This document shows, piece after piece, positions 1-55,250 of a DNA stretch of 64,000 nt (its first letter is position 1; each line of letters starts with the position of its first letter). The notes beneath the pieces are model-generated. The model had not been told where the DNA came from, made no database searches, and saw only the letters and a program-made list of their open reading frames with translations. Source of the stretch: Cyanidioschyzon merolae. Lineage: Eukaryota. Made by a program: the position numbers and the translations under genes. Location of the stretch: the NCBI GenBank assembly GCA_000091205.1, contig AP006498.2. One strand, given 5' to 3'.

Positions 1-875
1 GTCGGAAAGCAAGCCGTGAGCCGTCCTCGTCCCTTTCAAATTCAGCCTTAGAAACAATGTACGCCCGAAGAAAGTTGGTCCGCGGCGGTATAACAAGTGT
101 GCTGCTGGAAACCCTCTGGAGTCGAAGCCTTCGTCTCACATGGCTGTACAAGGCCGTGCGCTCACTCGCGTAACACGAGTTGCAACCCGGTCGCCAAACC
201 GTCGATAGTACGAACGCCAATCGTGGAACAAGTTCACTGCCGTTTAAATCAGCAGTTCTGAAGCGCATGTCTGAAGTCCAAGTGTGACCGCTCCACCTGA
301 AATATCTCCGGCTCATATCTTTGAACCCATGGCTCACTTCTCGTGAATATCTCGCAGCAGACCTGAGCGCTGGTACGTGGCAGCGTCCGTTTCGCCCCAC
401 TGGCGCGAGGCGGTTTCGAATCGCAGAATTGCGCGCGAGCGGCGACCTCCGGGATCGATAAACAGCTCATAGATCGAGCGGTACTTGTGGGCGCTCTGTA
501 GAGAGACTCGAGCGACTTGGTGCCAGTCACTGGAACGTAGTTTCTTGACATCTTTCATCGTGGATATAGGCTTGGGACCTGTCACTGATTCCGTAGCGGG
601 TTCGAGTTCGGTGGTGGAGTGTTCTTTTTCTTTCCCAGGGGAGGCCAGCGTCATCCGCGTAGTTGCTGGACACACACACACACAGACAGACAAGGGAAGC
701 TGCATCGTGGGTTTCTAGTGTTTGCTGCGCAGTCTGCACCGCGCAGATTTCATCAAGTCTTGCTAGTAGTTCGTGTCAGGTGCTGCGGTGACAGCGGCTG
801 CACGCAACTTGCGCGTCGACTGTGTTGCTGGCGTTGGGCCTCTGCTTTTGGTGCGTTTTCTAACAAGCACGCTCC

Positions 876-2813
876 ATGGAAGCTAAGGACGACTGCACAG
901 TCATGAACGAGGCAGACAAGGTTGCAGCGTCGCTCGAGGAGCTCGCTGCGCACGAACCGATAGGAACCCTGCTCCTTCGGCGGGCACTAGCGGCAGATGA
1001 GGCGGTTTCGCACCTACATGAGTACGCTGGAGGCTCTGTATATCTCGAGCGACTTCATGCGCGAACAATGGTGGTGTACTTGAGGGATCGTTTCCGATTA
1101 AATCCACTTTTCGAAAGTTCAGACCAGGTTCTCGAAGTGGCGAATGTCATCCATTCATCGCATCCGCGCTCATTCGAGAAGTGTCAGGATCTGTTCCAGC
1201 GGTTTATGTTGGAACTACTCACCCAATATGTGCTCATGGACGCAATGGAGCGGTTGCAAAACCGTGGAACCTGGCAGGTAGACCTGGAACCTTTAGAAGA
1301 ACTCGTGCAGGAGGATCCATCGTACGCATCCGGTCTGGCGCGTGTGAGATTGCACGAGTTGGAAGCGATATTCGCGAAAAAGCATAGTCCGCTTTCGCAA
1401 AAGTCTTCCTCGAAGGCGAAGAAATCGTCGGCTTCTGCCAACAAGTATCTTGGTCTGGATCAGCGACAGCTGGCGACATCGCTTTTTCCAGAGGACCGCC
1501 TGCTCCCAATGGCCACGGAGTATGTGGAAGCGCTTCTTGAATGGCTTGGAAAGCCACCGTTGACTGCAGCGCTGGAAGCGCTTGCGATGCTCGAAAGGCA
1601 CAACGCTGCGAATCCGCATGGGCATGAAGCCGCATCTCCGTCGAGACTCGATTCCGAAGCACTCTCTGAGACGACTGCACGGCCGCAGAGGACGCAAACC
1701 GGGAATGAGAACCTTTCGCGATCACCGGGAAAAAGAGCGGAAATACGACCTGCCCCAGTAGCTGTTGCAGTTGGTGAGCAAGCGGCACAGACCACCGCGC
1801 TCGCGACCAAGAAGAGCGCTTCGAGGTCGCAAACGTCGACGCCGCCAGCCAGCGCTGCGGTACCACCAGCACCTCGTGGAACAAAACACGCTGAATCTGC
1901 GCTGGATGAAGCGTTTGCGCAGCATGGGCGCACAGGATCGTCAACGCGGGTTCAGGAAGCGTCGTCGACGGTGGATCAACAGCAAACCGAGCATGTGAAG
2001 TCGAGAACGCGAGTTCCGACACCAGCCGCGGACCAAGACCGGGAACCTGCTGCGAAACAGGTGGATCCGACAGATGATGCCATTGCGGAGGCCTTGCGAT
2101 ACAACGCACCAGATGAAAAAAGGCAGAGAGGAAAAGCCGCACCCCGTCTGCCTGCTGCAAAAGGGGCGCGCTTATTCCGACACCCTTCATCACTGACCAC
2201 GAATGAATATGTCGCTACACAGGAGAAGGTATCGGAGCACAAACGGCGGAAACGTGTGCATGAGCCTGTTGCGCCGGCATTCGAGTCAGATGCGGGCGGG
2301 AGACAGCCAGCTCGTCCTACGTCGCAGCCACAGGCACCTATGACGCGACCTGGTTCCCCGCAGCCAACGAAGCCGGCGACCAGAGGCGGTCATGAACTTC
2401 CTTTATCAAATGAGGGCGGCATCAAGCTCGGCCCCCTCGTTCGATACACCCCCGAAGAGGACGAGGCGCTACTTGACGGCATTCGGGCCTGTGGCGTGGG
2501 CCACTGGCGACTCATCCTGAATCGTATTCAGGACCGGCTACAGGAACCGCATCGGAGCTACCAGTCCGTTCGGAAACGAGCGGAGCAGCTGATATCCCAG
2601 ATTGGGACCCTCCCGGAGCCACCACCGCCTTTGAACAGCTTTGCCAAAGTCCACTTCACAGCCGAAGAAGATGCCGAACTGCGAAAGGGGATCGATCTCT
2701 TCGGCTACGGCTCGTGGTCGCGTATTCTCAAACACGGTCGTTTTCACCCAAAAAGAACCGCGGAGTCGCTAAAATCACGCGCTCGGGTTCTGAAGCTCAA
2801 TCGTCTGCTCTAG
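876..2813 (+). CDS. Myb/SANT (TRF/telobox-like) double-repeat DNA-binding protein
   Basis: 645-aa ORF. The C-terminus has two Myb-like repeats with conserved Trp/aromatic spacing: 'RYTPEEDEALLDGIRACGVGHWRLILNRIQD' and 'HFTAEEDAELRKGIDLFGYGSWSRILKHGRFHPKRTAESLKSRARVL'. This resembles TRF-type Myb domains. The N-terminal region is low complexity. Confidence 0.5.
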   Translation: MEAKDDCTVMNEADKVAASLEELAAHEPIGTLLLRRALAADEAVSHLHEYAGGSVYLERLHARTMVVYLRDRFRLNPLFESSDQVLEVANVIHSSHPRSFEKCQDLFQRFMLELLTQYVLMDAMERLQNRGTWQVDLEPLEELVQEDPSYASGLARVRLHELEAIFAKKHSPLSQKSSSKAKKSSASANKYLGLDQRQLATSLFPEDRLLPMATEYVEALLEWLGKPPLTAALEALAMLERHNAANPHGHEAASPSRLDSEALSETTARPQRTQTGNENLSRSPGKRAEIRPAPVAVAVGEQAAQTTALATKKSASRSQTSTPPASAAVPPAPRGTKHAESALDEAFAQHGRTGSSTRVQEASSTVDQQQTEHVKSRTRVPTPAADQDREPAAKQVDPTDDAIAEALRYNAPDEKRQRGKAAPRLPAAKGARLFRHPSSLTTNEYVATQEKVSEHKRRKRVHEPVAPAFESDAGGRQPARPTSQPQAPMTRPGSPQPTKPATRGGHELPLSNEGGIKLGPLVRYTPEEDEALLDGIRACGVGHWRLILNRIQDRLQEPHRSYQSVRKRAEQLISQIGTLPEPPPPLNSFAKVHFTAEEDAELRKGIDLFGYGSWSRILKHGRFHPKRTAESLKSRARVLKLNRLL

Positions 2814-3896
2814 CTTTGCCTCGAGCGCCAACACGCGACCTCGCATTATGCATGTCAACCTGCACTACAAGCGTCTGCTTCAGTTCAAGCCGAGCAAATC
2901 CGGAAACCACCCGGTTACCGCGTCTATGTTCTTGCGGACTGCCCGAGAGCACGCGCGGCTCGCACACGACCTATGAAGCGTGCACCGTGACGTCGCCGTT
3001 GTCGCAGACCCCAAACATCCCTACTTTCCGAGTCTGAACGCTTTGCACCGCTGCTTCTTTCTTCAACCCCAGCGTGCATTCCAAGGACACGTGTTCTCCT
3101 GCGATTCCGCACTGGCATGCACGTCGATGGCGACACGCATCGCAGGCTGCGGCATTGCATGCATCCTGCCACGTGTCCGATCTGCTGTCTCCGATGCGTG
3201 CAAGCTTTCACTTGTGTGCTATCGTGCGAATTTGAAGCGCGCATTGGTGCTTGATATAGTGCAACACATCCAAATTTGGGCACCGTGCCGTGGAAGCCTT
3301 TTTGGTTTTTTGAAGGGCTAAAGATTCGATGTAGGATCGTGTGTACACCAACCGTGATGCCTCGATTCCGCGATGGGTATCTGCGTTCGGGAAGGCATCC
3401 GAGGCTCCACGCCTTGCCACCGAGTTCCGGGACCCATGTCTGCCCTCGGAGATATTGGTCATTTCGCTGGTTCCATCCGGTGCGGAGTCTATCGTGAGCG
3501 CCCCCTGGGACGCTGCCAGCGTCGGTACCGATAGAATGTCCAGAGGGAACGGCTTCGTTATGTCGCTGAGGACGTCCGCCAGAGGCGCCGCTCATCCGAC
3601 GAGGATACGGTCTCGTCGTCCGTTCGTGCTGCAACAGTAGGCGTATGCAAGCCTGCCTTCGTCATACTGAAGAAAATCAGGTGCTAGAACGAATCCTGCG
3701 GACCGAGTTTCCGCTTCGTAATTGTATGCGGCATGCGTCGCTGTTTGGCGATGCAGGCCTTGGCTCGGCATGCACTAGTGCAGAGGATCACGAAGCGCAT
3801 GACCTGCATGCTCGTCCGGTTCACGGGGCCTACCGCTTAGAAGGTAAAATGCCCCGAGTGGGCCGTCTCATGATTTTGGAATACGACCGAATGCGC

Positions 3897-5378: not shown

Positions 5379-5825
5379 ACTGCTCCTGTGTGCCGTCTAA
5401 ACGCCGAGGGCAAGCTCCACGCCAGGAGTCGCTGCAAAGAGCGCTGCCGGCACTATCAACCAACCAGGGCTTCGAGTCAGTGTGCACGCGCTTCCTTGTC
5501 CACAACGCTGATTGATAGCGATATACCTGCAAACGCGACGTGAACGCCAACCTACCAGGGCTTCGGGTCAGTGCGCACCCGCTTCCTTGTCCACAACGCT
5601 GATTATTAGCGATATACCCGCAAACACAACAACTGATGAAGCAGCGATCTCGCCGGCAAACGTGCACCCAACGCTACCAACTATGCTCGTCCAGGATGTA
5701 GTGTCTGTGCCGCCCAGTCCATGCTGATAGTTCAGTTACCGCTCCACGGAGTCGGTGGAGGATTGTCTAGCCCCCCTGCAAAGCATGCACTGCGGTAGCC
5801 GCGATGCCTGCCCGCATCACTCGAT

Positions 5826-10571: not shown

Positions 10572-11598
10572 CGACCCTCAACTGGTGATTGCAGCAATCG
10601 TAGGTGTACTGATGGTGACGGCGGTGATGATGTTGGCACAGATCGTCTTCAGTTCTTGAAACAACGGCCACACTGGTGATCGCCCACGCCAACTGGTCGT
10701 AAAGTGCTCAACTGAAGGTTGAAAGTAGCCCCCGCGACGGTGTCGGCAAACCTGCCTAGCGAAGGCGTCTGTCGATCGCATCGGATTGGCGACGTTGACG
10801 GGAGCGTTTGGCGCCGCCGCCGTAGTCGCAATAGCCGCCGCCCCTGGTATGCGCGCTACAGTAGCGTCTGGTGCTGGAACAGTCGTTTATGCCCTGCTTA
10901 CTGAGACTACATCGATGAATCAAGCTGCTTACGGACTTGAAAGAGAGCATGGATGGAGAGACGTCAGGCTACCTGTGTCTCCACAGTGCCGTGGATTGCA
11001 GATCACTGCGGATAGACGGGCGCGCTCCCGGGGTTCGCAGTCTGGCACGGAGCGCATATGCTTCATTCTTTCAGTGGTGCGCAAGCGTCTGCGCAGTGTG
11101 TTATGACTGACATGGGAGTGGCATGCAGTCCTCCTCGCCCTGTTCCGTATACAATACGTATCCTACAAGCAAGTCGTCTACGATTTTTACTGTTTATTGC
11201 ACTGTGATGTCCATCTCCTGCTATATACGCCGCAGCACGGCTCAAATAAAACAGCGTTGAAAGACTATAAATTGCAGCCAGCCAGCCAGCCAGCGTACCA
11301 GTGACTACACCAACAAGTATCGACGCTCGAGTTGTCAAACACGCGCGAAGGTAGCAGCCAGCTGTCGCTGCAGTGCAGCAGATCGCGCACTGCGAATGCC
11401 GATTTGGATGCCATTCTTGGAGCGGCCACGCGCAGGCGACACGTGTACGTGGAAACAGCCCGACAACGTATCGTACAGGGCGTGCTAGCGTTCGAACTGG
11501 TGCTTGTTGCGGGCTTGGTTGTCGTTTAAACTTGTACCTAGCACCAGGGGGACGCTTTCTGTGCGTTTCCGCATAGAAGCAGGTGTATCACGCTGGTC

Positions 11599-16975: not shown

Positions 16976-17629
16976 TCAGTGGTACGCTTCTCTTGAGCTG
17001 ACGCTCCCTGCACCCACGTTTGGTGCCTCGAAGGCGGCATTCGGCGTCTCGGCGCTGGCCTCATGTTTCTGTTCGTTCATGATACCGAGCACCGTGCCCA
17101 TGGTCGCAACGCTCTGCTGCAGCGCGTTCAAAGTCGCTCGAAGTTCGGCGAGTTGCTCTTGCTGCTCGAGCCGTTGGCTGCTGATGGACTCCAGTTCGGC
17201 ACGTCGCTCGCAGATCTCCAACTCCAACTCGGAACAATTTGGTAGTCGCTCGATCTCGACACACAAAGCCCGCAGCTCTCGCTCGCTAGCTAACTGCGAC
17301 TCAGCAACGCTGAGCGCCTTCTTTTCCTCCGCGTATTGTTCCCGAAGTTGCTTCACTTGCGCCTCCAGTGTAGGCAGTGCTAGGCAACGAAGGTTGTCCT
17401 CGTCAGTGGCGAGCGCCTGCGCGGCTCTGGCGAAATGCTCGGCCGACTGCTCGAGCGCAGCCAGCGATCGAGCCAAAGCGTCCGGGGAGGTTTCCACTCC
17501 GCGTCCTGCTTGCGTGAGTACCAGCACTTGACCTGCTGACTGTAGGAACTCGTCGTAGCGCTGTTCAAGTCGTGCAGCGATTGCTGTTTCACAGTCACCG
17601 CTGTCGCTAACGGTGTACATTAGTGGCAT
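16976..17629 (-). CDS. hypothetical coiled-coil protein
   Basis: ORF rich in heptad-like 'LEQ...AEL...LRE' segments. The track start at 17698 lies inside the conserved Fanzor tail. The first in-frame ATGs are at 17629 and 17620, so the start is uncertain. No family recognised. Confidence 0.3.
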   Translation of the reverse strand: MPLMYTVSDSGDCETAIAARLEQRYDEFLQSAGQVLVLTQAGRGVETSPDALARSLAALEQSAEHFARAAQALATDEDNLRCLALPTLEAQVKQLREQYAEEKKALSVAESQLASERELRALCVEIERLPNCSELELEICERRAELESISSQRLEQQEQLAELRATLNALQQSVATMGTVLGIMNEQKHEASAETPNAAFEAPNVGAGSVSSREAYH

Positions 17630-17747
17630 GTGGCCCGCCCTAGACGAGAGGTCTCCAACTGACGTGCAGACGCGTCCCCGTCTTTTTCGACCGGCCACCC
17701 ACTACTGCTTCTAACTTTTTCTTATATAGTTCGACTTTAAGAGGTTG

Positions 17748-19716
17748 TCAAACAAAGTTCTCTCTTGTCAACTCTGGAGCTCTCGTCTCCAGCACCGCAC
17801 ATCTCCTGATATTGATGGCGGCATCGAAGTCACGATTCACGAATTCCATACGTTTCTTGCCATCGTTGGTTGTACTGACCAATGCGAGTAGTCCACGAAC
17901 TTTCGCCATCCTTTCCATTTGCTCCTCCGTAAGCGGTCCATACTTTATTATATCTTCAGGGCTCCTCTGGCACTTTTCCATCTCCACTCTCTGAAGTGTA
18001 CAACCCAGCTCGTGGTGTGTATACGATGTTCGAAACTCATCTACAGGTATCGTAACGAAACGCCGTGCACACTCCTTGTGCGCTCTCGTCGTTGGAGCTG
18101 GTGTACACCCTTTTTGGGTCTTCCAGCGCCCTGCTCCGTATGCTACGACGAGCCTCTGACTTTCATCCTCCTTCAGGGCGTTCAACTGATTGAAAAAGTT
18201 CGCGAACGCCCGCTGTTTCCCACAGTATAGATTCATACGCAGACGAGCCCACCGAGGCTTTGTATACTCCTCCCACAGCGCCTCCCAATGAGCAACGCGA
18301 ACTTTCATGAATTTCAGAAAAGCTTGAAAGTCCGCTCCTCGGCTCGTCACCTCGCTCATAGCTTCCAAGTGGTCCTTTATTCCTGCATTCCATGTCTTAA
18401 TTTTCTTCCTCGCATTCATGATTCCCGATTCTCGATAGTCTCTTGCTGTCGAGAACCTCAGAAGACGCATGTGTTTCTGACGCAAGTTACCGTCAGTACC
18501 GTCGTCCGCAAGCTTGGATACAGCGATGGATATGATATTTGTGTTTCCGGGGTCCGCGCCAACGACAAAGTCGTTTTCCTGCACTTTCTGCGTCGCAGCA
18601 TCCGCTTGTTTGTTTTCTTCATGTTTCGCCGAGCGCGAAGCCGAGGGCGGAACTGGACGATCTTTCCTCAACCGCAGATAGTGTACACACATGGGTATTC
18701 CATCGCTTTCAATCAACCCAGTGAATTCCTTTTTCTTGCTGACTTTGAGCCCTTTGAAATTGAAGATATTCTTCCAGTACGTCTCGCGGGTTTCGGCGGT
18801 GATCTCTGTGCTCCTTACATCGAACTCGGGACTGGTCTCAGTCATGATGCCGTAAAGGACGCCGGAGTCGATAGTCACAAAATGTGACTTGATGTTGCCC
18901 AACGGAACCACGTTGAAGCGCTCGCCCATTAGGAACGCCTTCCGTCTCTCCCATTCTTCATTTTTTTCCTCACTCAGCTTCATCTCCGCTTTGCGATCGA
19001 GCTCTCGGTCCAAAAACACAAAATACCGTAGGACGAGACGATCGTATCTTTCCTTATCTTTTTTCAACTCTGATATCTTGTCTGTCGGATTCGCCAGCCC
19101 CGAAACTGCACGGTGCTCTTGCATAACCGCACGGATTACAGAAGCTGCATTCGTGATCTCTTTTGACGCCTTCTTGTCGACGAATCCGATCCCATCTACA
19201 CGCCGGCGATTGTTCGTGATGCCATTGATAATCGCCCATATCCCTTTGGGAGAGATGCCCGGGATAGAGTGCAAATGCGGCGCGTATCATGAAACGTTCG
19301 AGGTTCGTTGTCAAACGATTCTCCAGATTCGTGAGTCACTTCATCGCCCCATAGTCGTAAATATCCCGGTCATCCCTGTACTGGGTACCCTCGAAGCGGA
19401 ATTCCGCGAAGTTTTCGTGGAGGGCATGCACCCGCTCATTTTCCATCCGCGCATCCTTTGTACCAAGCATCAGCTGACGAATAAACTTCTTATCGAAAAA
19501 CTCGTCCGGAATCTCGACCGTTTCCATGTGCGTCACGTCGCGATACATCTCCCGTACCAAATGCATCAGTCCTGACGACGCCTTTACAATACTCTTGGAG
19601 TACGAGTCGACACGGTTTCTGATAGCGTCTCGCAACTTTTCCCTGTAGGGATCCTTGATATGCTTAAGGACACCGGCTTTCACCACCATCTCGTCGTACA
19701 TTCGTCTTTCTTGCAT
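17748..19716 (-). pseudogene. Fanzor1-like TnpB-family RuvC nuclease, disrupted (~655 codons)
   Basis: The three track ORFs 19336..19716, 19054..19314 and 17748..19274 are pieces of one gene. Motifs: '[12 protein letters not shown]' (RuvC-I), 'CTPAPTTRAHKEC...HHELGCTLQRVEMEKC' (zinc finger) and 'KKRMEFVNRDFDAAINIRR' (RuvC-III). An in-frame TGA at 19333-19335 falls where copy B has Tyr. Near 19272 a 1-bp insertion ('tatcccggg' vs copy B 'tgcccggg') shifts the frame. Confidence 0.75.
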
Positions 19717-19733
19717 CGTTCGACGTAGAGCCT

Positions 19734-19743
19734 CCCCCCCCCC
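19734..19743. repeat. poly(C) tract (10 nt on + strand; poly(G) immediately 5' of the copy-A Fanzor start codon on the - strand)
   Basis: Reads 'cctccccccccccttt'. Confidence 0.8.
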
Positions 19744-20703
19744 TTTGGTCCTTCTTCTTTTCCTTTTCTTCTGGACTCGTCACTGTTTTTTGTTTTTTCT
19801 GGCAGCCGGCGACACTGGGCCTCCAGGATCGTGGACTTGCTTTTTCATCACTTTCCTTTTCTTGTTTGTTTTTGAAAAACAACGCTCTTTGATCCCTTCT
19901 GTTATACACAGCAAAAAATCAATCGAGCATTTTTCCTTGAGGTTTGAAACACAAATGAACTGAAAACTGTACTTTGCTACGACCTCAACGCAAACACAAC
20001 TTTTACAGCTGAACAAGACGCTTCTGATCGCGATTGCGTCTCCCTTCAACGGCGACGGGCGCGTCGTGTCTAATGCCTGCCAGATAAGGATGTGCGCGTA
20101 TCGGGCGCACTCTATAGAACAAAGAACAGATACTGACCATTAAATCGCCACGAGATAACGATTTCTTTCCCCTCTACGATAAACGTTGAGACGGGGAAAA
20201 CTGTCGGTACTTTCGAAAGTTTACCTTCTAGACGCAAGGTCCCGCGGATTGCACGAGTCTCCCAGGCTCGTGCTTCACGCTCCGCCACTGGCAGGTGCTT
20301 TCGTGACATCTGAGCAACTCGTCCGTAACGCACTCCACTCTGGGACTTGGAACGGGTAGCCGCCGTCTGGGCGTTGCCCATGATGCAGTGGACTCCTGGT
20401 ATATCGCGTTGCGCTGCCGCAGGCACTAGATCAATCTGCGCAGCTTGCAGACTCCTAGAACGACTATGAGCCACGACTCCGTTTCAGGTGAAGCGTTCCT
20501 CGGTCCGACGCCCTCAGAGGTATGGCAAAGCCGTTCAGTCTCCGTGATGCATCGGCATCAGCGATAGAACCGCAATTGCGGGTGCTCAAAGCAGGTAATC
20601 GGCGCTCGATAGAGCATAAGAATCGACCATTACATCCGAAAAGGTTTATGGGTCATGTAGCTTGAGGGTAAGTGCATCATGATGGATGCTTTCCCGAAAC
20701 CCA

Positions 20704-20728
20704 ACATCCATCCATCCATCCATCCATT
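20704..20728. repeat. (CATC)n microsatellite
   Basis: Reads 'catccatccatccatccatccat'. Confidence 0.85.
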
Positions 20729-21050
20729 CTGCAATCTAGGATCCATGGTCCACGTAAACGTTTTGTATAAAAAATTCTCATCAGCAGCAGCGACGGCGCT
20801 AGGCCCCAGCCGTCATCCTGGCGCCCGCTGAAGGCTCGCTGCGAAGCCTCGGCTGCATCGCAAGCCCAGGTGTCGTTCCGTTGTCAACCGAAAACACTTG
20901 TAGATCGAGTTGGTGCTGAACAACGTGGGCTCTGTGACTCCTCCCTAAACTCTTGCTCGCTTCTGATTGGGAAAAGGTTTGCAGCCTCAAACAGTGTGTG
21001 GAGAACACTAGAACTTAACCAACACCACACCGCCCACGACACAGTTACCC

Positions 21051-25453: not shown

Positions 25454-25662
25454 GACGCGCAGAACAACGCGGACTTGGAAGCGAAGTCGCTGATGCCCAC
25501 TGCACTACCCGTACGAGTCCAGGGGTCTAAGCTGTGACTGTCCGGCGTCCAGCACGAGCAGCGAAAATCGCGAAAGCGTTTTGGCTTGACGCTGGGCGCT
25601 GTGTCCAGTGTGACTGGATCCGCCAACGTTGACGACGCGTGCGCCGCACGTGGCATTCCTGG

Positions 25663-26130
25663 AGCGGGCGTATGCGAACCCTGAACCTACGGAAGCGAGT
25701 TGCTCTCAGAGCGGGCGTGTGCGAACCCTGAACCTACGGAGGCGAGTTGCTCTCAGAGCGGGCGTGTGCGAACCCTGAACCTACGGAGGCGAGTTGCTCT
25801 CAGAGCGGGCGTATGCGAACCCTGAACCTACGGAAGCGAGTTGCTCTCAGAGCGGGCGTATGCGAACCCTGAACCTACGGAGGCGAGTTGCTCTCAGAGC
25901 GGGCGTGTGCGAACCCTGAACCTACGGAGGCGAGTTGCTCTCAGAGCGGGCGTGTGCGAACCCTGAACCTACGGAGGCGAGTTGCTCTCAGAGCGGGCGT
26001 ATGCGAACCCTGAACCTACGGAAGCGAGTTGCTCTCAGAGCGGGCGTATGCGAACCCTGAACCTACGGAGGCGAGTTGCTCTCAGAGCGGGCGTATGCGA
26101 ACCCTGAACTTACGGAAGCGAGTTGCTCCC
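25663..26130. repeat. 47-bp minisatellite, ~10 tandem copies
   Basis: The unit 'gagcgggcgt(a/g)tgcgaaccctgaacctacgga(a/g)gcgagttgctctca' repeats head-to-tail with a/g variants at two positions. It lies ~200 bp upstream of the 25453 start of the lipase-like gene. Confidence 0.9.
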
Positions 26131-30406: not shown

Positions 30407-32346
30407 AGCTCGCGCACCCATGTGATATCAGCATGCTCAAGTTCGCAAAGCAGGTACACTGGAGCGATGGAGAGACCCGTTGCTGCGACAGGGGCTCAAT
30501 GCTCCTGTCTGCGTTAACGCACCACTTGATTCGTACCGGCTGCGTGCCAGCGACGCTGCAGCCGTGGCGGCGCCCACTGCTGCCTTAGTATGGCGGTTTG
30601 GCCCGGCGCAGTGCATCCGAGCGAGCCGGCCTGCAGCCAGGCACCTTGTCGGGTTCATGGCGCATACGCCACCGTGAAACCCGATACACCAATACGGGCA
30701 AACTGGGCTAAAGCAGCCGAGGTGTTCGTGCGCAGCCACAAGCTTCACTTGCCCTGCTGCATGTGCGAACGGTTCGCGTTATCATCCCTATTTCCCGCTG
30801 AAAGTCCTGTTCATGCGCACGTGGTATACCTGCTCTGCATCGGAGCTTGAGTTGCTCACCGATAGGTAGGGGCGCGCTAGACCTCGTGTTTTTGCGGGCC
30901 TGCCCCACAGCCAGTCAACGTGGCGGACCCACATGGCCAGCGCCAACGCACTCGGGGCAGAACAGTTCTTATGCAAGTTTCACAGCAGACCCTGAGGAGG
31001 CCGCCGCTTCGTCTTCCTGACGATCTTGAGCAAAGATAACACGCTGCTTGTCTGTCTGCCTTTCTGCCTGTCTGTGTCCGTTGAACAAGCATTCGGCAAT
31101 ACAACGCGCTGGCGTCAACGCCGTGCCGCTGCTCATGGCTTCTCATGTTGAAACCGAATATCGTTCACTCTATCATGTTGAAACATGGATCCTGGTCGTA
31201 AACTTGGATGTTTCCATGGACATGGTCCAAGCATAAGACGCACCATTCACTGATCCAGATACATGTATGCATGGTTGGAACGGGGCGGTACCTCCGCATG
31301 CACTGCAGCTGTGTTGCGTGCACAGGACGTCGGCAAGCGCACACACGTGAGGATGCAGAAGCAGCGCTCAGTCACCTGCAATTCAAACGGTACAGGTGCA
31401 CTTGACATCGGCGAGTCGAGCAAGCGCCACCTCCCGTGAATGAAGACAATCAGAGCTCTGACGCTGCGAGCATCGTGGTAAGCGTCTCTTCCAGAAGAGA
31501 GGTCGTTCCTTCGAAAACCCGCCGAGAAACACGCCGCCCTGAGCGTACCGTGTAGATCTGGCCTAATGAAGACACCGACATCGACAATGCTGACATGTAT
31601 CTGGATCAGCGACTTGGACCCGGTGGTCGGTGCCGCTGCCCCCTGACCGAGGCTCTCGCTGTGATGGACAGTTTGCCGCTAATGGACCCAGTTTATGCTT
31701 GAAGCTCTATCCGGCGTGCACCATCTCGACACAGATTGCCTCGTTGTTAACGCCGGAAAGCGTCAGGTCGATCCCATGCACCACCGGCTGCTAGACGCGA
31801 TCAATTGCCTGGGCGGCACGATCGACAACACGCATACGATGGATCGTTACACGATAAAGTCACGTTCTGTCCATAAAAATAGATAATTGTATTGCCTCAG
31901 ATGACGCTGACGTTCCCATAGCACGCAGCGCACCACAAGTACTGCATACACGCATACGATGGATCGTTACACGATGAAGACACGTCCTATCCATAAAAGT
32001 ATAGCTTTGTACTACCCCTCATGCCACCCTCGTTGCCACGGCACGCGCAGCATCACCGAAGGCACCCCAGGGCATCGCGGCTTTGGCCCGCCTCCAGTCA
32101 AGCGCGCGCGCCAATTCGGCAGCGATTCGAAACCGACGCGACGACGCCCGGGCGCTGAGGTGCAATCGTTTTTTCTCGAACGTGAGAAGGCCGTTGCAAG
32201 TAACCGCTTCTGTGGGGTGCGCTCGTTCCTCGAACCACATAACGCCTAGACTTGGAATACTTTCAGAAGACAATTTATTCCTAGGAACTGTCTTGCATAT
32301 AACATCGTGCTTGTGGAGAGGTTGCGGCGCTACATGGGCGTTTTGT

Positions 32347-43595: not shown

Positions 43596-43925
43596 CAGAC
43601 AATCAGAATGTCCGTCTCGTTCTATAAACTACTGGTATGAACGTCTCTGCGAGTCGCTTGTCGTCAGGATGTCCGTCTCTTTCCATAAAATACAGGTATG
43701 GCAAGTTTCTACTTGCCGCTTGTCGTCAGAATGTCCGTCTCTTTCCATAAAATACAGGTATGGCAAGTTTCTACTTGCCGCTTGTCGTCAGAATGTCCGT
43801 CTCTTTCCATAAAATACAGGTATGGCAAGTTTCTACTTGCCGCTTGTCGTCAGAATGTCCGTCTCTTTCCATAAAATACAGGTATGGCAAGTTTCTACTT
43901 GCCGCTTGTCGTCAGAATGTCCGTT
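43596..43925. repeat. 62-bp tandem repeat, ~5 copies
   Basis: The unit is 'cgcttgtcgtcagaatgtccgtctctttccataaaatacaggtatggcaagtttctacttgc'. The first copy is degenerate and four are near-perfect. Track ORFs 43516/43760/43822 are artefacts of the repeat. Confidence 0.9.
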
Positions 43926-45789: not shown

Positions 45790-46310
45790 GGCGTACAAGC
45801 AACGTCCCAAGTTGATCCATCCATCTATGTATTTATACTCAGCAAAACGGATATCTTTCTAGGACCATAGAGTGTGTATAGAAACCTACTGACAGACGCC
45901 CCGTAGCATCAATGGACCCATGGGCTGCAATCAGCTTAAGTTTATACCTGCACACTTCGTGCATCAAAGGCTGCGTCGCAAAATTCACTCGTGTCTGCTC
46001 CGCGAGTCTCGTCTTCAGCACCGCTTTCCGTCTGACATTGATGGCGGTGTAAAAGTCCCAGTTCACGAATTCCATGCGTTTATCGCCTCTGGTGAAACGG
46101 ACGTATGCAAGGATGCCTCGAAATCATACCCTCCGTGCCACTAGTCTCGTGGATCTCTCCTCTTCTTCCTCACCTACTCTTCTTCGCACGACGGTCGGCG
46201 AGAAAAGGATCTTTTTCGTTATTTTTCCGGGAGCCGGCGACACCGGGCCTCCAGTATCCTCGATTTCCATGTACATAACTTTTCCTTGATTCTTTTATTT
46301 CTTCAAATAA
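45790..46310 (-). mobile_element. internally deleted Fanzor-family element (5' conserved block fused to the RuvC-III coding remnant plus 3' tail)
   Basis: ORF 45839..46075(-) reads '...RGILAYVRFTRGDKRMEFVNWDFYTAINVRR', matching the copy-A C-terminus 'RGLLALVSTTNDGKKRMEFVNRDFDAAINIRR'. The DNA below it is homologous to the copy A/B tail ('ggtccattgatgctacggggcgtctgtcagtagg' vs 'ggtccaaaaaaggggaggcgtctgcacgtcagttgg'). Positions 46141-46310 match the copy-A 5' block ('gggagccggcgacaccgggcctccagtatcc' vs 'ggcagccggcgacactgggcctccaggatcg'). Confidence 0.6.
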
Positions 46311-46880: not shown

Positions 46881-47612
46881 TGGAAGATGGCGGTGATTGA
46901 ACTAGGACTCTTTTTTGCGATTAGATTCCAGTGATCTCAGGATCCGCACCATCAAGCTGTTGAGAATCAGAGATGCCGGTTGCGGCTACTATGGTCGCTT
47001 TTGTTGCTCGTAAGTAGTTCATGTTGAAACCATTGACCGAAAGCAGTATCTGATATTACCATTTTTTGGCGCGGAGCGCAGATACTTGTTTCACTCAGTA
47101 TTCCTCAAGCATTTGAGTACTGTGTCAAGACTCACCTGAAGGAAGAATGTTGTCCTTCTTGCACGATTCAGTAAAGAATATATCCTGCAAACAAGTCGTC
47201 GACGATGCATACGGCATGTAGCATCATGATGTCGATCTACTGCTACACACTGAGAAGGAGCATTCGATGACACAGACACCAGAGATGGAACGTAACTGAG
47301 ATGAAAGACGATAACACCGTATTCGATACAGAACTATAACATAAGGGTCAATGTGGACACATTTTCTAAGTGACCTACATGAACTCTGGGGCTGTCGCCT
47401 AACTTTCATAACCGCAAACTCTTCGCGTGGTTTCCAGTGCTCGCTGCTGCGTCTCCACCACACTGCCCTGTAACCTAGTAGTTGCAGTGGAGGCTGCCGG
47501 TGTGGAGAAGCAAACGGGCTGTATACCGTGAACGTGACAGCGAGCGGCGAGTCTTCCTAGAACGTTCCTGTTCGCTGGCCGGGAGTGTAAACCTGCACCG
47601 GGCCTCGCCATC

Positions 47613-50133: not shown

Positions 50134-50255
50134 GCAGCGGCTGGAATGCGCACCTAATCGGAGAACGCTGGCCCAAGTAAACGTTTTGTCAATGAAAAAA
50201 AAGCTGGAATGCGCACCTAATCGGAGAACGCTGGCCCAAGTAAACGTTTTGTCAA
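50096..50255. repeat. (GCGT)n microsatellite followed by a ~62-bp tandem duplication (2.3 copies)
   Basis: 'acgtgcgtgcgtgcgtgcgtgcgtgcgtgcgtgcgg' is followed by 'gctggaatgcgcacctaatcggagaacgctggcccaagtaaacgttttgtcaatgaaaaaaaa' twice plus a partial third copy. It lies 150-300 bp upstream of the ACBP start. Confidence 0.85.
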
Positions 50256-51014
50256 TGAAAAAAAAAGCTGGAATGCGCAGGCGCTCTGCATTCGCCAAAT
50301 GCGATCGTGCGGTGCCTGCTTCCGCTGCTGCTTCTCGCGCATTCGGGCCCTGGGCAGTGCCTCGTACATTCGTCGATACTGTACCACACGAGTCGATCCG
50401 GCTGCATCAGAGAGCAGCAGCTTTAGCGGGATACGAGTTTTGGTCGAAGGTAGGTCGTTTAGATTCAAGGAGCTCATGATGTGGAGTTTTGAAGTGAATA
50501 GCGCCCGCGACATCACCCGAGTCGATGCAATCTGCTTTCGCTGATGCGGGAGACGGAGTATTTCCGATCACAAAACGTTTACGTTGACCATGTATCCCAG
50601 ATTGCGGAGTGGTTACTGGTTTTCGGGAAAGCGTTCATTATAACGCAACCTACCTTCAAGTTCTATGGCCTGTTCTCAGATATTCTGGTCGTTTTGTTCG
50701 TTCTATTATGCGCCGAGTTCCTGTCTTACTGCACCCGCCGTGGCGCTTATGCCGTTGAGGCAGATGCTTCACGGAGCTGAATAGCATTGCCATATCACTA
50801 GCGGCTTCGGTTCGAGGCATGATTCATTCGACATGGAGTCGGGCTATATGATTATCCTGGGAGCCTGCAAGCTGCGCAAACAGGCCGACAGTCTGCGACA
50901 GCGTGAAGCGATAAGCTGGGAGTCCATTGCGACCAGGGCGACGCCCAGATGTAGCGTTCCAGTCCCAGTTCCAGAATGAACTGCATTGCGGGCGAGTTGC
51001 TTGGATCTCCCTAC

Positions 51015-53195
51015 AGCTTTAGCTACTGAGGGGTGAATGAAGCACGAGCCTAGGGGACATTCTTGGACATATCAAGGATCCGTACGAGCAGGAATTTCGA
51101 GAGGCCATCAGAAACCGTTTCGCGTCCCACTCCATGAGTATTAAAAAGGCTTCTTCAGAACTAATGCATATGGTGAAGGAGATTTATCGCGACATGACTG
51201 ACATCATAACAGTGGAGGTTCCGGAAGAATTTTGGAACAGGAACTTTATTCGTCACCTGATGCCTGGCACATGGGAAACGTCAAAGAGAGATGAACTCGT
51301 GCGTGCGTTCCACGAGGGTCGCGCCGAATTCCGCTTCAAGGGTACTCGATACAGGGGCGATAGGGATATTTACGACTATGGGGCTATGAAGTATCTCACG
51401 AACCTGAAGAACCATTTGACAACCAACCTCGAACGTTTCATAATAAGAGCCGTATTTGCGCTCTGCCCGGGCATCTCTCGCAAAGGGATATGGGCGATTA
51501 TCAATGACATCACGAACGATCGCAAGCATGAAGATGGGGTCGAATTCGTCGACAAGAAGGAGTCAAACGAGAGCACGAATGAAGCTTCTGTGATCCGTGC
51601 GGTTGTACAAGAGCACCGTGCAGTCGTGGGGCTGGCGAATCCGCCAGAAAAGATATCAGAGTTGAAAAAAGATAAGGAAAGATACGATCGCCTCGTCCTG
51701 CGCTATTTCCTGTTTTTGGACCGAGAACTCGAACGCAAGGCGGAGATGAAACTGAGTGAGGAAAGCAATGAAGAGTGGGAGAGACAGAAGGCTTTCCTAG
51801 TGGGTAAGCGCTTCAATGGCGTTCTGTTGTGCAACATAAAGTCACATTTCGTGAGTATCGACTCCGGAGTCCTCTAAGGCATCATGAAGGAGATCTGTCC
51901 GGAGTTCGATGTCAGCAGGGAGGAATTCACCGGCGAAACCCGTCCGACGTACTGGAAGAGTATCTTCGATTTCAAACGTCTCAAAGTGAGCAGGCAAAAG
52001 TTGTTCACTGGGATAATCGAAACCGATGGAGTAGCCATGTCTGTAAACTATCGGCTGTTGAAGAAAGATCGTCCAGTTCCGCCCTCGGCTTCGCCAGTGA
52101 CGAAGGATGAAGAAAAGGAGGAGGCCGGTCCTGCGACACAGGATGTGCAGGATAACGACCTTGTCGTTGGCGCGGCGAAGGATGAAGATGAGGAGGAGGC
52201 GGGTCCTGCGACGCACAAAGTGCAAGATAACGACTTTGCCGTTGGCGCGGACCCCGGAAACACAAATATCATCACCATGGCAGTACCCAAGCGTGTGGAA
52301 GATGGCGCTGACGGCAACTTACGTCAGAAAGACATGCGTTTGTTGAGATTCTCGAGAGCGAGACACTATCGAGAATCGGGAATCATGAATGCGAGGAAGA
52401 AAATCGAGACTTGGAATGCTGGAATAAAGGACCACTTGGAAGCTATGAGCGAGGTGACGAGCCGAGGAGCGGGCTTTCAAGCTTTCCGGAAATTTATGAA
52501 AGTTCGCGTTGCTCACTGGGATGCGCTGTGGGAAGAATATACAAAGCCTCGGTGGGCTCGTCTGCGTATGAATCTATACTGTGGGAAGCAGCGGGCGTTC
52601 GCGAACTTTTTCAATCAGTTGAGCGCCCTGAAGGAGGATGAAAGTCAGAGGCTCGTCGTAGCATACGGAGCAGGGCGCTGGAAGACCCAAAAAGGGTGTA
52701 CGCCAGCTCCAACTACAAGAACGTACAAGGAGTGTGCACGGCGTTTCGTTACGATACCTGTAGATGAGTTTCGAACATCGTATACACACCACGAGCTGGG
52801 TTGTACACTTCAGAGAGTGGAGATGGAAAAGTGCCAGAGGAGCCCTGAGGAAATCGCAAAGTACGCACCGCTGACGGAGAAGCAAATGGAAAGGATGGCG
52901 AAAGGTCGACGACTACTTGCATTAGTAAGTACAACCAATGATAGCAAGAAACGTATGGAGTTCGTGAACCGAAACTTTAACGCCGCTATCAATATAAGGA
53001 GATGTGTGGCGCTGTAGAAAAGACCCTCCAGAGTTGAGAGAATTTCGTGGGACAACCTCTCAAAGTGGAACTATATGAGAAAAAGTTGAGAGAAGTAGTA
53101 GGTGGCCGGTCCAAAAAAGGGGAGGCGTCTGCACGTCAGTTGGCGACTTCGTGTCTAGGGCGCATTCGCCGCCACTACTGTACACCGCTGGCGAC
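51015..53195 (+). mobile_element. Fanzor/TnpB-like element copy B (5'-altered decayed ORF plus conserved 3' non-coding tail)
   Basis: Homologous to copy A at the protein level and along the 3' tail through ~53195. Copy B lacks the 5' 'ccggcgacac' block seen in copy A and the deleted copy. Confidence 0.7.
51037..53017 (+). pseudogene. Fanzor1-like TnpB-family RuvC nuclease, disrupted (copy B)
   Basis: An in-frame TAA at 51878-51880 falls where copy A has Tyr (TAC). A ~14-nt indel near the N-terminus sits between ATG 51037 and 'catatcaaggatcc'. A 75-bp in-frame tandem duplication (52103-52252) gives '[25 protein letters not shown]|[25 protein letters not shown]'. RuvC-III reads 'NRNFNAAINIRR' (Asp to Asn) and the stop comes earlier ('CVAL*'). 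Confidence 0.75.
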
Positions 53196-53326
53196 TGCTT
53201 TCGACTTTTGAAAGGCGTTCGCTGTCGCTGCCATGTGCTTCCGCAAAACCGCCTCCTCTGAACGGCCTCGACATCCGCTTTCGCAATAAAAGGCTCCGCG
53301 GGGTTTCCAATTGCTAAAACACGAGC

Positions 53327-54519: not shown

Positions 54520-55250
54520 TGTGAGTAAACCAGAAAATGTTCCACGGATACTGGGGGTAGATTCATACCCACCAATAGAAACATCCGAGCATTTATGGAC
54601 TGGCCGCCTGCTTTCGGCATCAGCTTCTCCTTATAAAAGCATCAGAGGCTGCATCATGATTTTAGATCGCCTCAGGTCTTCAAGTCTGTTCTTCAGTGCC
54701 GCAAATCGTCTGATATCTATGCTCGCGTTACAGTCTCGTTTCACAAACTCTAGGCGTTTATTGCCACTGGTTGAACTCATGATTGCAAGCATTGCTAGCA
54801 CTGGTGCCGTCAACCACTCTACAGTTTCGTCTGTCGCTCATCTTCTCCTTTTCCCATTTCTTCGTTATTTGCTCTTCTTCGCTCCATGTTCGGCGAGAAG
54901 AGCTATTTGCCCGACGACACAATGATGAGCCTGTCGTGGCACTGAGGTCGCGAGTTCTAGCAATCCTTGCATATCTGCGTTCAACCAGAGGCAATAAACG
55001 CATGAATTCAGTGAACCGAGGCGTCGACGCCAGCATCAATATCAGACGAGTTGCAGTGCTAAAGACGAGCCCCCAGGAGCTGACGCGAGCCAACGCTGTC
55101 CGGCAACCTCTGATACTCCAGGTATTCCGGGAGAAACGGAAGCCGATAGCATTCGACCGCTCCATAAATGCCACGAGACGTCTCCAAGTGGATATACCAT
55201 GCATCCCCATGATTGGGGAATGTTTTTCGTTTTATCGTTATTGCCCGCGG
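54520..55250. repeat. ~730-bp near-palindrome (inverted repeat) built from two Fanzor 3' ends, arms ~54520-54850 (-) and ~54910-55250 (+), centred ~54885
   Basis: The reverse complement of the left arm aligns with the right arm at ~80% identity. Each arm encodes a RuvC-III remnant: 'NKRLEFVKRDCNASIDIRRFAAL' on the minus strand and 'NKRMNSVNRGVDASINIRRVAVLKTSPQELTRAN' on the plus strand. Each continues into sequence homologous to the copy A/B non-coding tail ('ggcaacctctgatactccagg' vs 'ggacaacctctcaaagtggaac'). The centre is itself palindromic: 'gctcttcttcgctccatgttcggcgagaagagc'. Confidence 0.75.

Follow-up and report, generated by a model that had tools for sequence, protein, structure and literature searches.

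Several described systems lie close to the locus considered here, a broken gene in a 64,000-nucleotide stretch of the Cyanidioschyzon merolae genome (contig AP006498.2 of assembly GCA_000091205.1; 'the window' below means this whole stretch). The first is the Fanzor1 group of eukaryotic TnpB homologs, represented by SpuFz1 of Spizellomyces punctatus (PDB 8GKH) and PpFz1 of Parasitella parasitica (PDB 9CF0). Fanzor signatures comprise a DPG at RuvC-I (Yoon et al. 2023), an inert Pro or Gly at the position of the canonical RuvC-II Glu and, six residues ahead of the zinc finger, an alternative Glu; the metal-binding residues of SpuFz1 are E541, D383, N385 and D606 (PMC10432273). The second is CMe-1A, the sole Fanzor1 family listed for C. 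merolae (Bao & Jurka 2013, Mobile DNA 4:12, PMC3627910; Repbase). It was described as having ~150 genome copies, each ~80% identical to a consensus of ~3 kb (3169 bp in the published table), without terminal inverted repeats and with its target site duplications undetermined; its 5' 635 bp are 95% identical to a separate element, TE-N2_CMe (PMC3627910). According to Bao & Jurka some copies still encode an intact protein (PMC3627910). The authors who defined Helitron2 treated CMe-1A as non-autonomous and left its transposon class unassigned (2013; PMC3627910).

A preliminary description of the window, made without database searches, had proposed a near-full-length Fanzor1-like RuvC nuclease gene on the minus strand at 17603-19900 (copy A), with a paralogous copy elsewhere in the window (copy B). 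Our analysis bears out the kind of gene proposed, and places it: copy A is almost certainly a decayed full-length copy of CMe-1A, a Fanzor1 pseudogene of an already published family. The family, its consensus, its protein and its Fanzor1 classification have been public since 2013, and the locus is therefore not new.

Copy A and its lesions

In a global alignment with the CMe-1A consensus, taken from the supplementary file of Bao & Jurka 2013, window positions 20770-17582 correspond to consensus positions 1-3169 from end to end at 85% identity, and the two sequences, which come from the same organism, agree in their termini (5' ...GACAAAACGTTTAC, 3' ...TTTTGAAAGGCG). The element is thus larger than the interval first drawn around it. 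Its single gene, CMe-1, is a 734-codon open reading frame (ORF) at consensus positions 906-3110; the start of this ORF falls opposite window position 19848, and it encodes a Lys/Arg-rich N-terminus (GKKRKTVPSPEEQEKTKKQKRE) whose composition suggests that it may serve as a nuclear localization signal. The parts of copy A are:

17582..20770, minus strand: full-length copy A of CMe-1A, from the consensus alignment (85% identity)
20122..20770, minus strand: 5' module, approximately consensus 1-635, 95% identical to TE-N2_CMe according to the 2013 paper; missing in some copies
17640..19848, minus strand: remnant of the 734-codon Fanzor1 ORF, from the homolog of the ATG (19848) to the consensus stop near 17640, from the consensus alignment

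Among related copies in metagenomes (see below), L001 and L005 are without the 5' module, and their homology to copy A begins at 20103/20085.

Three minus-strand ORFs, 19336..19716, 19054..19314 and 17748..19274, are present exactly as they had been listed, and the motifs quoted from them, including MEFVNRDFDAAINIRR, are all in the sequence. Joined after repair they give a 655-aa protein, 97-100% of which is covered by full-length homologs encoded in a single ORF, and for this reason we regard the three-ORF join as real. The proposed length of ~655 codons for the gene does not stand, the published consensus ORF being 734 aa long; the repaired part of copy A is 82% identical to CMe-1 residues 50-698.

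Copy A is unable to make CMe-1. While the consensus ORF is open, copy A differs from it by 15% substitutions and by five disabling lesions, two nonsense codons and three frameshifting indels, and is a pseudogene fossil. The lesions are:

19799 (approximate), minus strand: lesion 1, 1-bp deletion in an A-run, a frameshift in the Lys/Arg-rich N-terminal segment, from the consensus alignment
19739..19743, minus strand: lesion 2, 4-bp insertion (GGGG) in a G-run, from the consensus alignment
19336..19338, minus strand: lesion 3, in-frame TGA at consensus Tyr170; TAT in copy B, TAC or TAT in other copies
19264, minus strand: lesion 4, 1-bp insertion of T (+T), a frameshift between the second and third ORFs; common to L007, L010 and L066
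17748..17750, minus strand: lesion 5, GGA>TGA nonsense at consensus codon 699, from the consensus alignment

The preliminary description had counted only two lesions, which correspond to lesions 3 and 4 at slightly displaced positions (19333-19335 for the TGA, actually 19338-19336, and ~19272 for the insertion, actually 19264). Measured against the 734-aa consensus, those at ~19799, ~19743 and 17750-17748 have to be added, the last of which had been mistaken for the natural stop. Lesions 1 and 2 jointly restore the frame after ~18 garbled codons, a stop among them, and lesion 5 cuts off the last 36 residues of CMe-1, residues that distant relatives possess. At lesion 4 copy A reads CTCTA[T]CCCGGG where most other copies read TACCCGGG, and pairwise alignment of copies A and B shows a 1-bp length difference ~70 nt downstream of the TGA. 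We considered a compensated frameshift in copy B at this site, but an alignment of ~50 copies rejects it: copy B has TAC>TGC, and the extra T is found in the A lineage only.

Other copies of the element come from hot springs. A scan of metagenome contigs yielded 80 related loci in hot-spring samples, and 217 stretches encoding relatives at 57-96% identity were found in Joint Genome Institute (JGI) samples Ga0078972, Ga0080006, Ga0123519, Ga0207433 and others (loci L001-L086). Some of these stretches lie at loci orthologous to those of C. merolae 10D at ~99% identity, from which it follows that the metagenomes hold near-complete Cyanidioschyzon-like genomes and offer a population-scale view of the family. 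No fully intact copy was found among the 86 metagenome loci; L001 has an 819-codon open frame, but its consensus ATG has been lost through the same A-run frameshift as in copy A. The intact paralogs that the preliminary description predicted elsewhere in the genome are in line with the statement of Bao & Jurka (PMC3627910).

These copies bear directly on whether the lesions could be sequencing or assembly errors, with the gene intact in the organism. Two of the indels do fall in homopolymer runs (the A-run at ~19799 and the G-run at ~19743), the most error-prone kind of sequence. However, the TGA at 19338-19336 and the +T at 19264 recur in separate hot-spring assemblies: L010, 97.2% identical to copy A, carries both, while L007, 96.9% identical, and L066 carry the +T and not the TGA. 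The flanks of L007 and L010 differ from those of copy A. A further copy, L048 (98.8% identical), is at the orthologous locus for the 3' part of copy A; it covers 18567-14751, a range that takes in the site of the 17750-17748 TGA, where the state of its codon was not read. Recurrence in independently assembled copies means that the +T is not an assembly artefact, and error as an account of the lesions has a next to negligible probability. Since the +T is common to copies that have diverged by ~3%, the frameshift also predates that divergence and is not very recent; the suggestion that copy A decayed recently is not supported.

We estimated the ratio of non-synonymous to synonymous substitution rates (dN/dS, Nei-Gojobori) between copy A and ten other copies, with two wrong frames as a control. 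In the gene frame dN/dS is 0.29-0.40 for these ten comparisons (0.28-0.43 when the values set beside the control are included), whereas the wrong frames give 0.7-1.4, mostly 1.1-1.3; it follows that much of the divergence of the family arose under protein constraint. The CMe-1 protein has long been under purifying selection, in agreement with the remark made in 2013 on its long-lasting coding capacity (PMC3627910).

It might be argued from such numbers that a working protein is still made from copy A, by frameshifting, read-through, an intron or split N- and C-terminal polypeptides. Between copy A and L007 there are 26 synonymous and 27 non-synonymous changes, a ratio of 0.28 that looks like constraint despite the +T common to both, and the 508-aa ORF at 17748-19274 holds the whole RuvC half of the protein with its catalytic triad intact. 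On this account, however, five independent lesions would all need bypassing, and the 508-aa ORF lacks ~190 N-terminal residues of consensus CMe-1. An intron spanning the TGA and the frameshift was rejected, because the segment between them encodes residues conserved in the family (KYLTNLKN.L..N). Moreover, L010 is a mosaic, sharing the TGA with copy A, and with L007 a different premature stop (ARD*RESG), several substitutions and the stretch NVRKKIETW. Copies of CMe-1A have thus probably exchanged sequence by recombination or gene conversion, a process that can import differences with the appearance of selection. The low A-L007 ratio is best, if not strictly, explained by such recombination, and we consider expression of a working protein from copy A very improbable.

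Fanzor1 homology, active site and zinc finger

A search for homologs of the repaired protein gave 76 clusters, nearly all of them unannotated JGI metagenome proteins, with distant homologs in the green alga Haematococcus lacustris. When a family profile of 14 sequences was compared with all PDB chains, it matched PpFz1 (E=1.6e-13), SpuFz1 (E=4e-10) and GtFz1 of Guillardia theta (E=7e-4), and the significant chains were Fanzor1 only. The profile pairs the three RuvC motifs of the family with those of the known structures: vvgiDPGrtni with VLMDPGRRD and VVIDPNKRD, vdEFRts with IDEFRTS and LDEYKTS, and nRD with NRD. Among 1.84 billion representative proteins the profile found 5321 relatives at E<=1e-3, 712 of them at E<=1e-30. 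Many relatives carry a precomputed assignment to PF26935 (DUF8286), of which we found no mention in the literature.

The predicted fold points the same way. An AlphaFold2 model of the exact 508-aa ORF, made with a 20-row alignment, has a mean pLDDT (predicted local distance difference test score) of 65.6, with values of 70-89 across most of the RuvC half (residues 231-508). In a Foldseek search with this model, ranks 1-7 are all Fanzor1, led by SpuFz1 (E=7e-12) and followed by PpFz1 and GtFz1; Cas12 proteins appear from rank 8, and Fanzor2 at rank 12. SpuFz1 and PpFz1, the best fold matches, have the same DPx, DE(Y/F)(K/R)TS and NRD motifs as CMe-1, at an overall identity of only 11-16%. The catalytic codons of copy A, numbered both in the repaired protein and in the consensus, are:

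18552..18554, minus strand: RuvC-I catalytic Asp, in GADPG (D388 repaired, D431 consensus)
18036..18038, minus strand: alternative RuvC-II Glu, in VDEFRTS (E560 repaired, E603 consensus), aligned to SpuFz1 E541
17829..17831, minus strand: RuvC-III catalytic Asp, in VNRDF (D629 repaired, D672 consensus)

At RuvC-I, D388 stands in GADPGNTNI, with its D, P and G unchanged in all 14 aligned sequences; this DPG is aligned with D383-P-N385 (DPN) of SpuFz1 and with the DPG of PpFz1. The canonical RuvC-II position is occupied by Gly (G527 in VVAYGAG, likewise invariant), and the alternative Glu is E560 in VDEFRTS, invariant in all 14 sequences and aligned with E541 of SpuFz1 (DE541YKTS), which is the Glu of LDEYKTS once the maltose-binding protein (MBP) offset of the deposited chain is taken into account. 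At RuvC-III, D629 lies in VNRDF, with R and D invariant, and pairs with the NRD of SpuFz1 and PpFz1; we take the SpuFz1 motif to hold D606, although its residue position was not counted out. Also invariant near the active site are K486, R488 and W489. The stretch LVVAYGAGRW had been read, from the letters alone, as compatible with a rearranged Fanzor1-type site, and that reading is supported by the Gly at the canonical position together with E560. Bacterial TnpB proteins (IS200/IS605 and IS607 elements, e.g. ISDra2) belong to the same superfamily and likewise have RuvC in three motifs. In them RuvC-I reads D-hydrophobic-G and the Glu occupies its canonical place, ~50 residues ahead of the finger, whereas CMe-1 has DPG, a Gly at that place, and a shifted Glu.

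That the protein of copy A is a decayed Fanzor1-type TnpB homolog is supported by the family profile, the fold search, the aligned catalytic positions and the published identity of CMe-1A. It is, in addition, the product of a multi-copy mobile element in a eukaryote, with several copies in the window and relatives in hot-spring metagenomes. There are results that weigh against this assignment. Used as a single sequence, the repaired 655-aa protein has no match among Pfam families (E<=10, including PF07282), only noise in NCBIfam and no phmmer match in PDB, so that none of these three scans links it directly to TnpB families; even for its relatives the best PF07282 score (the Cas12f1-like TNB domain, formerly OrfB_Zn_ribbon) is E=0.1-0.2. 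Confidence in the AlphaFold2 model is moderate, and poor in the region preceding RuvC-I. The canonical CCCC zinc finger is absent, its positions being occupied by H567..L570 and L/V..T in both copy A and the published consensus, and for that reason activity is unproven even for an intact CMe-1. The link to Fanzor is visible with a family profile only, and the profile search that had been suggested as a check accordingly divides: it is negative with the single sequence, and positive with the 14-sequence profile, which finds Fanzor1 structures with their catalytic positions aligned.

The four-cysteine finger between the alternative Glu and RuvC-III was called "strictly conserved" in 2013 (PMC3627910), while Yoon et al. 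report a finger in "many", not all, TnpBs and Fanzors; a CCCC finger is shared by SpuFz1 and ISDra2 TnpB. The C/H zinc finger claimed in the preliminary description is not the canonical one: all four Cys positions are non-Cys, and the proposed CTPAPTTRAHKEC is misplaced upstream of the alternative Glu, its first Cys not conserved in the 14-sequence alignment. HHELGC...C is conserved within the CMe-1 lineage only, with HH and the first Cys also in two nearer relatives. Of the relatives, 140 possess the alternative Glu as well as the RD motif; 119 of these are without both Cys pairs and 6 keep the second pair; CxxC...CxxxxC is kept in 15, which are more distant. Loss of the finger is thus a feature of a clade, and because the family's own authors list CMe-1 as Fanzor1 we treat the finger as typical of Fanzors and not as defining them.

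Such a loss raises the question of function. SpuFz1 combines its CCCC finger with experimentally shown activity, whereas CMe-1 has no CCCC finger and its nuclease activity is predicted. It might be that the CMe-1 family, having lost the finger that supports the target-nucleic-acid-binding (NUC) domain, no longer acts as a nuclease or has been put to another use, such as RNA-guided DNA binding or a cofactor role in transposition; both Cys pairs are missing in those 119 relatives and retained in the 15 distant ones, and purifying selection on the family continued despite the loss. However, the three acidic residues of the active site (D, E and D), together with K486, R488 and W489, are invariant in the 14 sequences, as is expected of an active RuvC, and according to Yoon et al. 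not all TnpBs and Fanzors have a finger. We therefore think it unlikely that the family is nuclease-dead, and favor a predicted nuclease whose active site has been maintained.

By homology with TnpB and Cas12, an intact CMe-1 would be an RNA-guided endonuclease with a single RuvC site formed by the D of DPG, the alternative Glu of DEFRTS and the Asp of NRD. The protein would bind an omega RNA transcribed from the 3' end of the element, the guide part of this RNA would pair with DNA beside a short motif, and the RuvC site would cut the target. In TnpB systems target cutting aids the persistence of the element. RNA guidance, the omega RNA and nuclease activity are all inferred for CMe-1 from its homologs.

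Copy B, remnants and neighboring sequence

The window has 56% G+C and long ORFs without introns, in keeping with the C. merolae genome; its 2386-aa ORF at 55373-62530 matches XP_005537918.1/BAM81882.1 of C. merolae 10D residue for residue. Fanzor1 sequence occurs in it as two long copies, A and B, and three fragments. The second copy mentioned in the preliminary description is present, and the copies other than A are:

50565..53217, plus strand: copy B of CMe-1A, from the consensus alignment, 82-88% DNA identity to copy A
45839..46294, minus strand: short Fanzor1 remnant, internally deleted or older, consisting of a piece from upstream of the ORF and the last ~50 codons, from sequence comparison
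54589-54802 (minus strand) and 54953-55171 (plus strand): two inverted Fanzor1 3'-end remnants, each of the C-terminal ~55 codons, from sequence comparison

Copy B is also decayed. Internal 5' deletions have cost it ~580 bp, comprising a portion of the 5' module, the promoter region and ~59 codons from the start of the ORF. It carries nonsense codons at 51875-51877 (TAA) and 53015-53017 (TAG), three small indels near the C-terminus, and an Asp>Asn change at RuvC-III (NRNFN). It also contains a 75-bp tandem duplication at 52101-52250. The duplicated segment encodes ~25 residues (…KHEE.K.A.PATQ.VQDND.VV.A) directly upstream of the RuvC-I Asp; some metagenome elements contain it three or four times (L001 7223-7450; L004 5431-5651). 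The segment is a hot spot of in-frame expansion, and the relative P0001 is 752 aa long because of it.

In the three short remnants (45.8-46.3 and 54.6-55.2 kb) the coding match is restricted to ~50-60 codons at the end of the Fanzor gene. The inverted pair at 54.6-55.2 kb is separated by ~150 bp, and its C-terminal tails resemble the older, longer tail of distant family members; to judge by this resemblance, the two may derive from a second Fanzor1 subfamily of greater age. A tandem array of 2.2 copies of a 63-bp unit (98% matches) lies at 50140-50279, some 300 bp upstream of copy B and oriented opposite to it; read on the minus strand it begins with the 5' terminus of CMe-1A and TE-N2 (TTTTTTTTTCATTGACAAAACGTTTAC...), and the same unit is found near related elements in L001, L008 and L020.

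Immediately downstream of copy A lies a gene whose longest ORF (16976-17698, minus strand) runs into the 3' end of the element, with an in-frame ATG (MPLMYTVSDSGDCETAIAARLEQ...) within the terminal ~45 nt of the latter. The 5' end or the start codon of this host gene may have been supplied or displaced by the transposon.

Unrelated to these elements are several tandem repeats, at 25662-26128 (47 bp x 9.9, 97% matches), 43603-43924 (62 bp x 5.2, 94% matches), 5457-5625 (91 bp x 1.9) and 31828-32046 (120 bp x 1.8). A pair of ~180-bp direct repeats at 11043-11223 and 47067-47245, 70% identical to each other and likewise unrelated to CMe-1A, may represent another dispersed repeat.

Element ends, candidate omega RNA and carrier transposon

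The ends of the element were examined by comparing copies. The 5' boundary is sharp, at 20766-20770, when copy A is set against copy B and L010, whose flanks differ from its own, and three copies with unrelated flanks start ...(C)GATG/CAGTG-ACAAAACGTTTACGT. The 3' end, from ~50 copies, reads ...CGCCACTACTGTACAC-CGYTGGCG-[hairpin]-GGCG. Its terminal hairpin exists in two versions, CGTTCGA-CTT-TCGAACG and AACGTTTTTC-TTTT-GAAAGGCGTT; both of them pair, which indicates compensatory change, and the G-T wobbles fit the sense strand.

Bacterial TnpB genes, like CMe-1, lie at the right end of their transposon, where the guide RNA arises, and a corresponding RNA can be proposed here:

17582..17800, minus strand: candidate omega-RNA (right-end RNA) scaffold, overlapping the ORF tail and including CAGTAGTGG/CCACTACTG and the terminal hairpin, from analogy with other Fanzors and modest structure counts

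The 3' domain is conserved, and a consensus built from 46 3' ends folds so as to form a long-range helix of 9 bp, CAGTAGTGG/CCACTACTG. In the alignment 77.6% of cells are paired, against 36-51% with slid partners, and the covariation score is 0.138, against 0.066-0.089, a value reached in 1 of 500 shuffles; both counts apply to a structure derived from the consensus of the same alignment, in a region that is mostly coding. This circularity makes the evidence weak, and it speaks, as does the finding of only 3 pairs by RNAalifold on the same 46 ends, against this part of a Fanzor reading. Rfam has no match, either in the whole window at gathering thresholds or in 17400-18100 at E<=1. We accordingly regard an omega RNA at the 3' end of CMe-1A as plausible by analogy only.

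The same ends bear on the class of the carrier. GACAAAACGT occurs within the first 14 nt of the consensus. Ten nucleotides at the 5' terminus are complementary to a site that lies ~62 nt short of the 3' end, a match of that length occurring in 1 of 500 shuffles. Flanks were compared at window positions 20771-20790 and 50545-50564 and at loci L008, L010, L024, L038, L067, L081 and others: a T-run ends 8 of 11 distinct 5' flanks, TT begins 14 of 21 3' flanks, and each of the first two 3' flank positions is T in 17 of 21. Beyond these positions the flanks stay G/T-rich for ~10 nt, a stretch that members of a subfamily have in common. It may be that the published consensus stops ~10 nt before the true 3' end, or that T-runs are the target; CMe-1A termini are not fixed by empty sites. 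Fragments that retain only the 3' end are common among the copies.

In several of these respects CMe-1A resembles CRe-1/2/3 of Chlamydomonas reinhardtii, Helitron2-type elements that carry Fanzor1. Both are without terminal inverted repeats and have a hairpin close to each end; in both, a short stretch at the 5' terminus is complementary to a 3' subterminal one, a T-run precedes the element, T follows it, and many copies are 5'-truncated or 3'-only. They differ in that CMe-1A starts with C and the Helitron2 type with T, and in that the 3' complement is ~62 nt from the end in CMe-1A and 20-30 nt in the Helitron2 type. No RepHel gene or partner was seen for CMe-1A, in work that included no dedicated search for one. 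The differing spacing, the want of a known RepHel partner and the class left unassigned in 2013 all weaken the case. It is tempting to speculate that CMe-1 and its many relatives in algae of acid hot springs form a large finger-less Fanzor1 clade, its D-E-D site intact under purifying selection, carried on a rolling-circle element of Helitron2-like type that has T-runs as its insertion sites and shares its 5' end with TE-N2_CMe. We regard the Helitron2-like assignment, and this proposal as a whole, as tentative and rather improbable.

As a discovery the locus is of small value, the family having been published in 2013 and copy A being dead, although it has some use as a test case, in that a tool-free reading of motifs was enough to recognize a Fanzor in a protein without any Pfam match. 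Three side results may be of interest to those who study Fanzors. The canonical finger is absent across a large clade that is still under protein-level constraint, hundreds of copies from hot-spring metagenomes sharpen the termini of the element, and its ends and flanks hint at a Helitron2-like carrier. If the proposal of a finger-less clade on such a carrier were true, CMe-1 would provide a natural Fanzor scaffold without a zinc finger, and the class of a transposon unassigned since 2013 would be settled.

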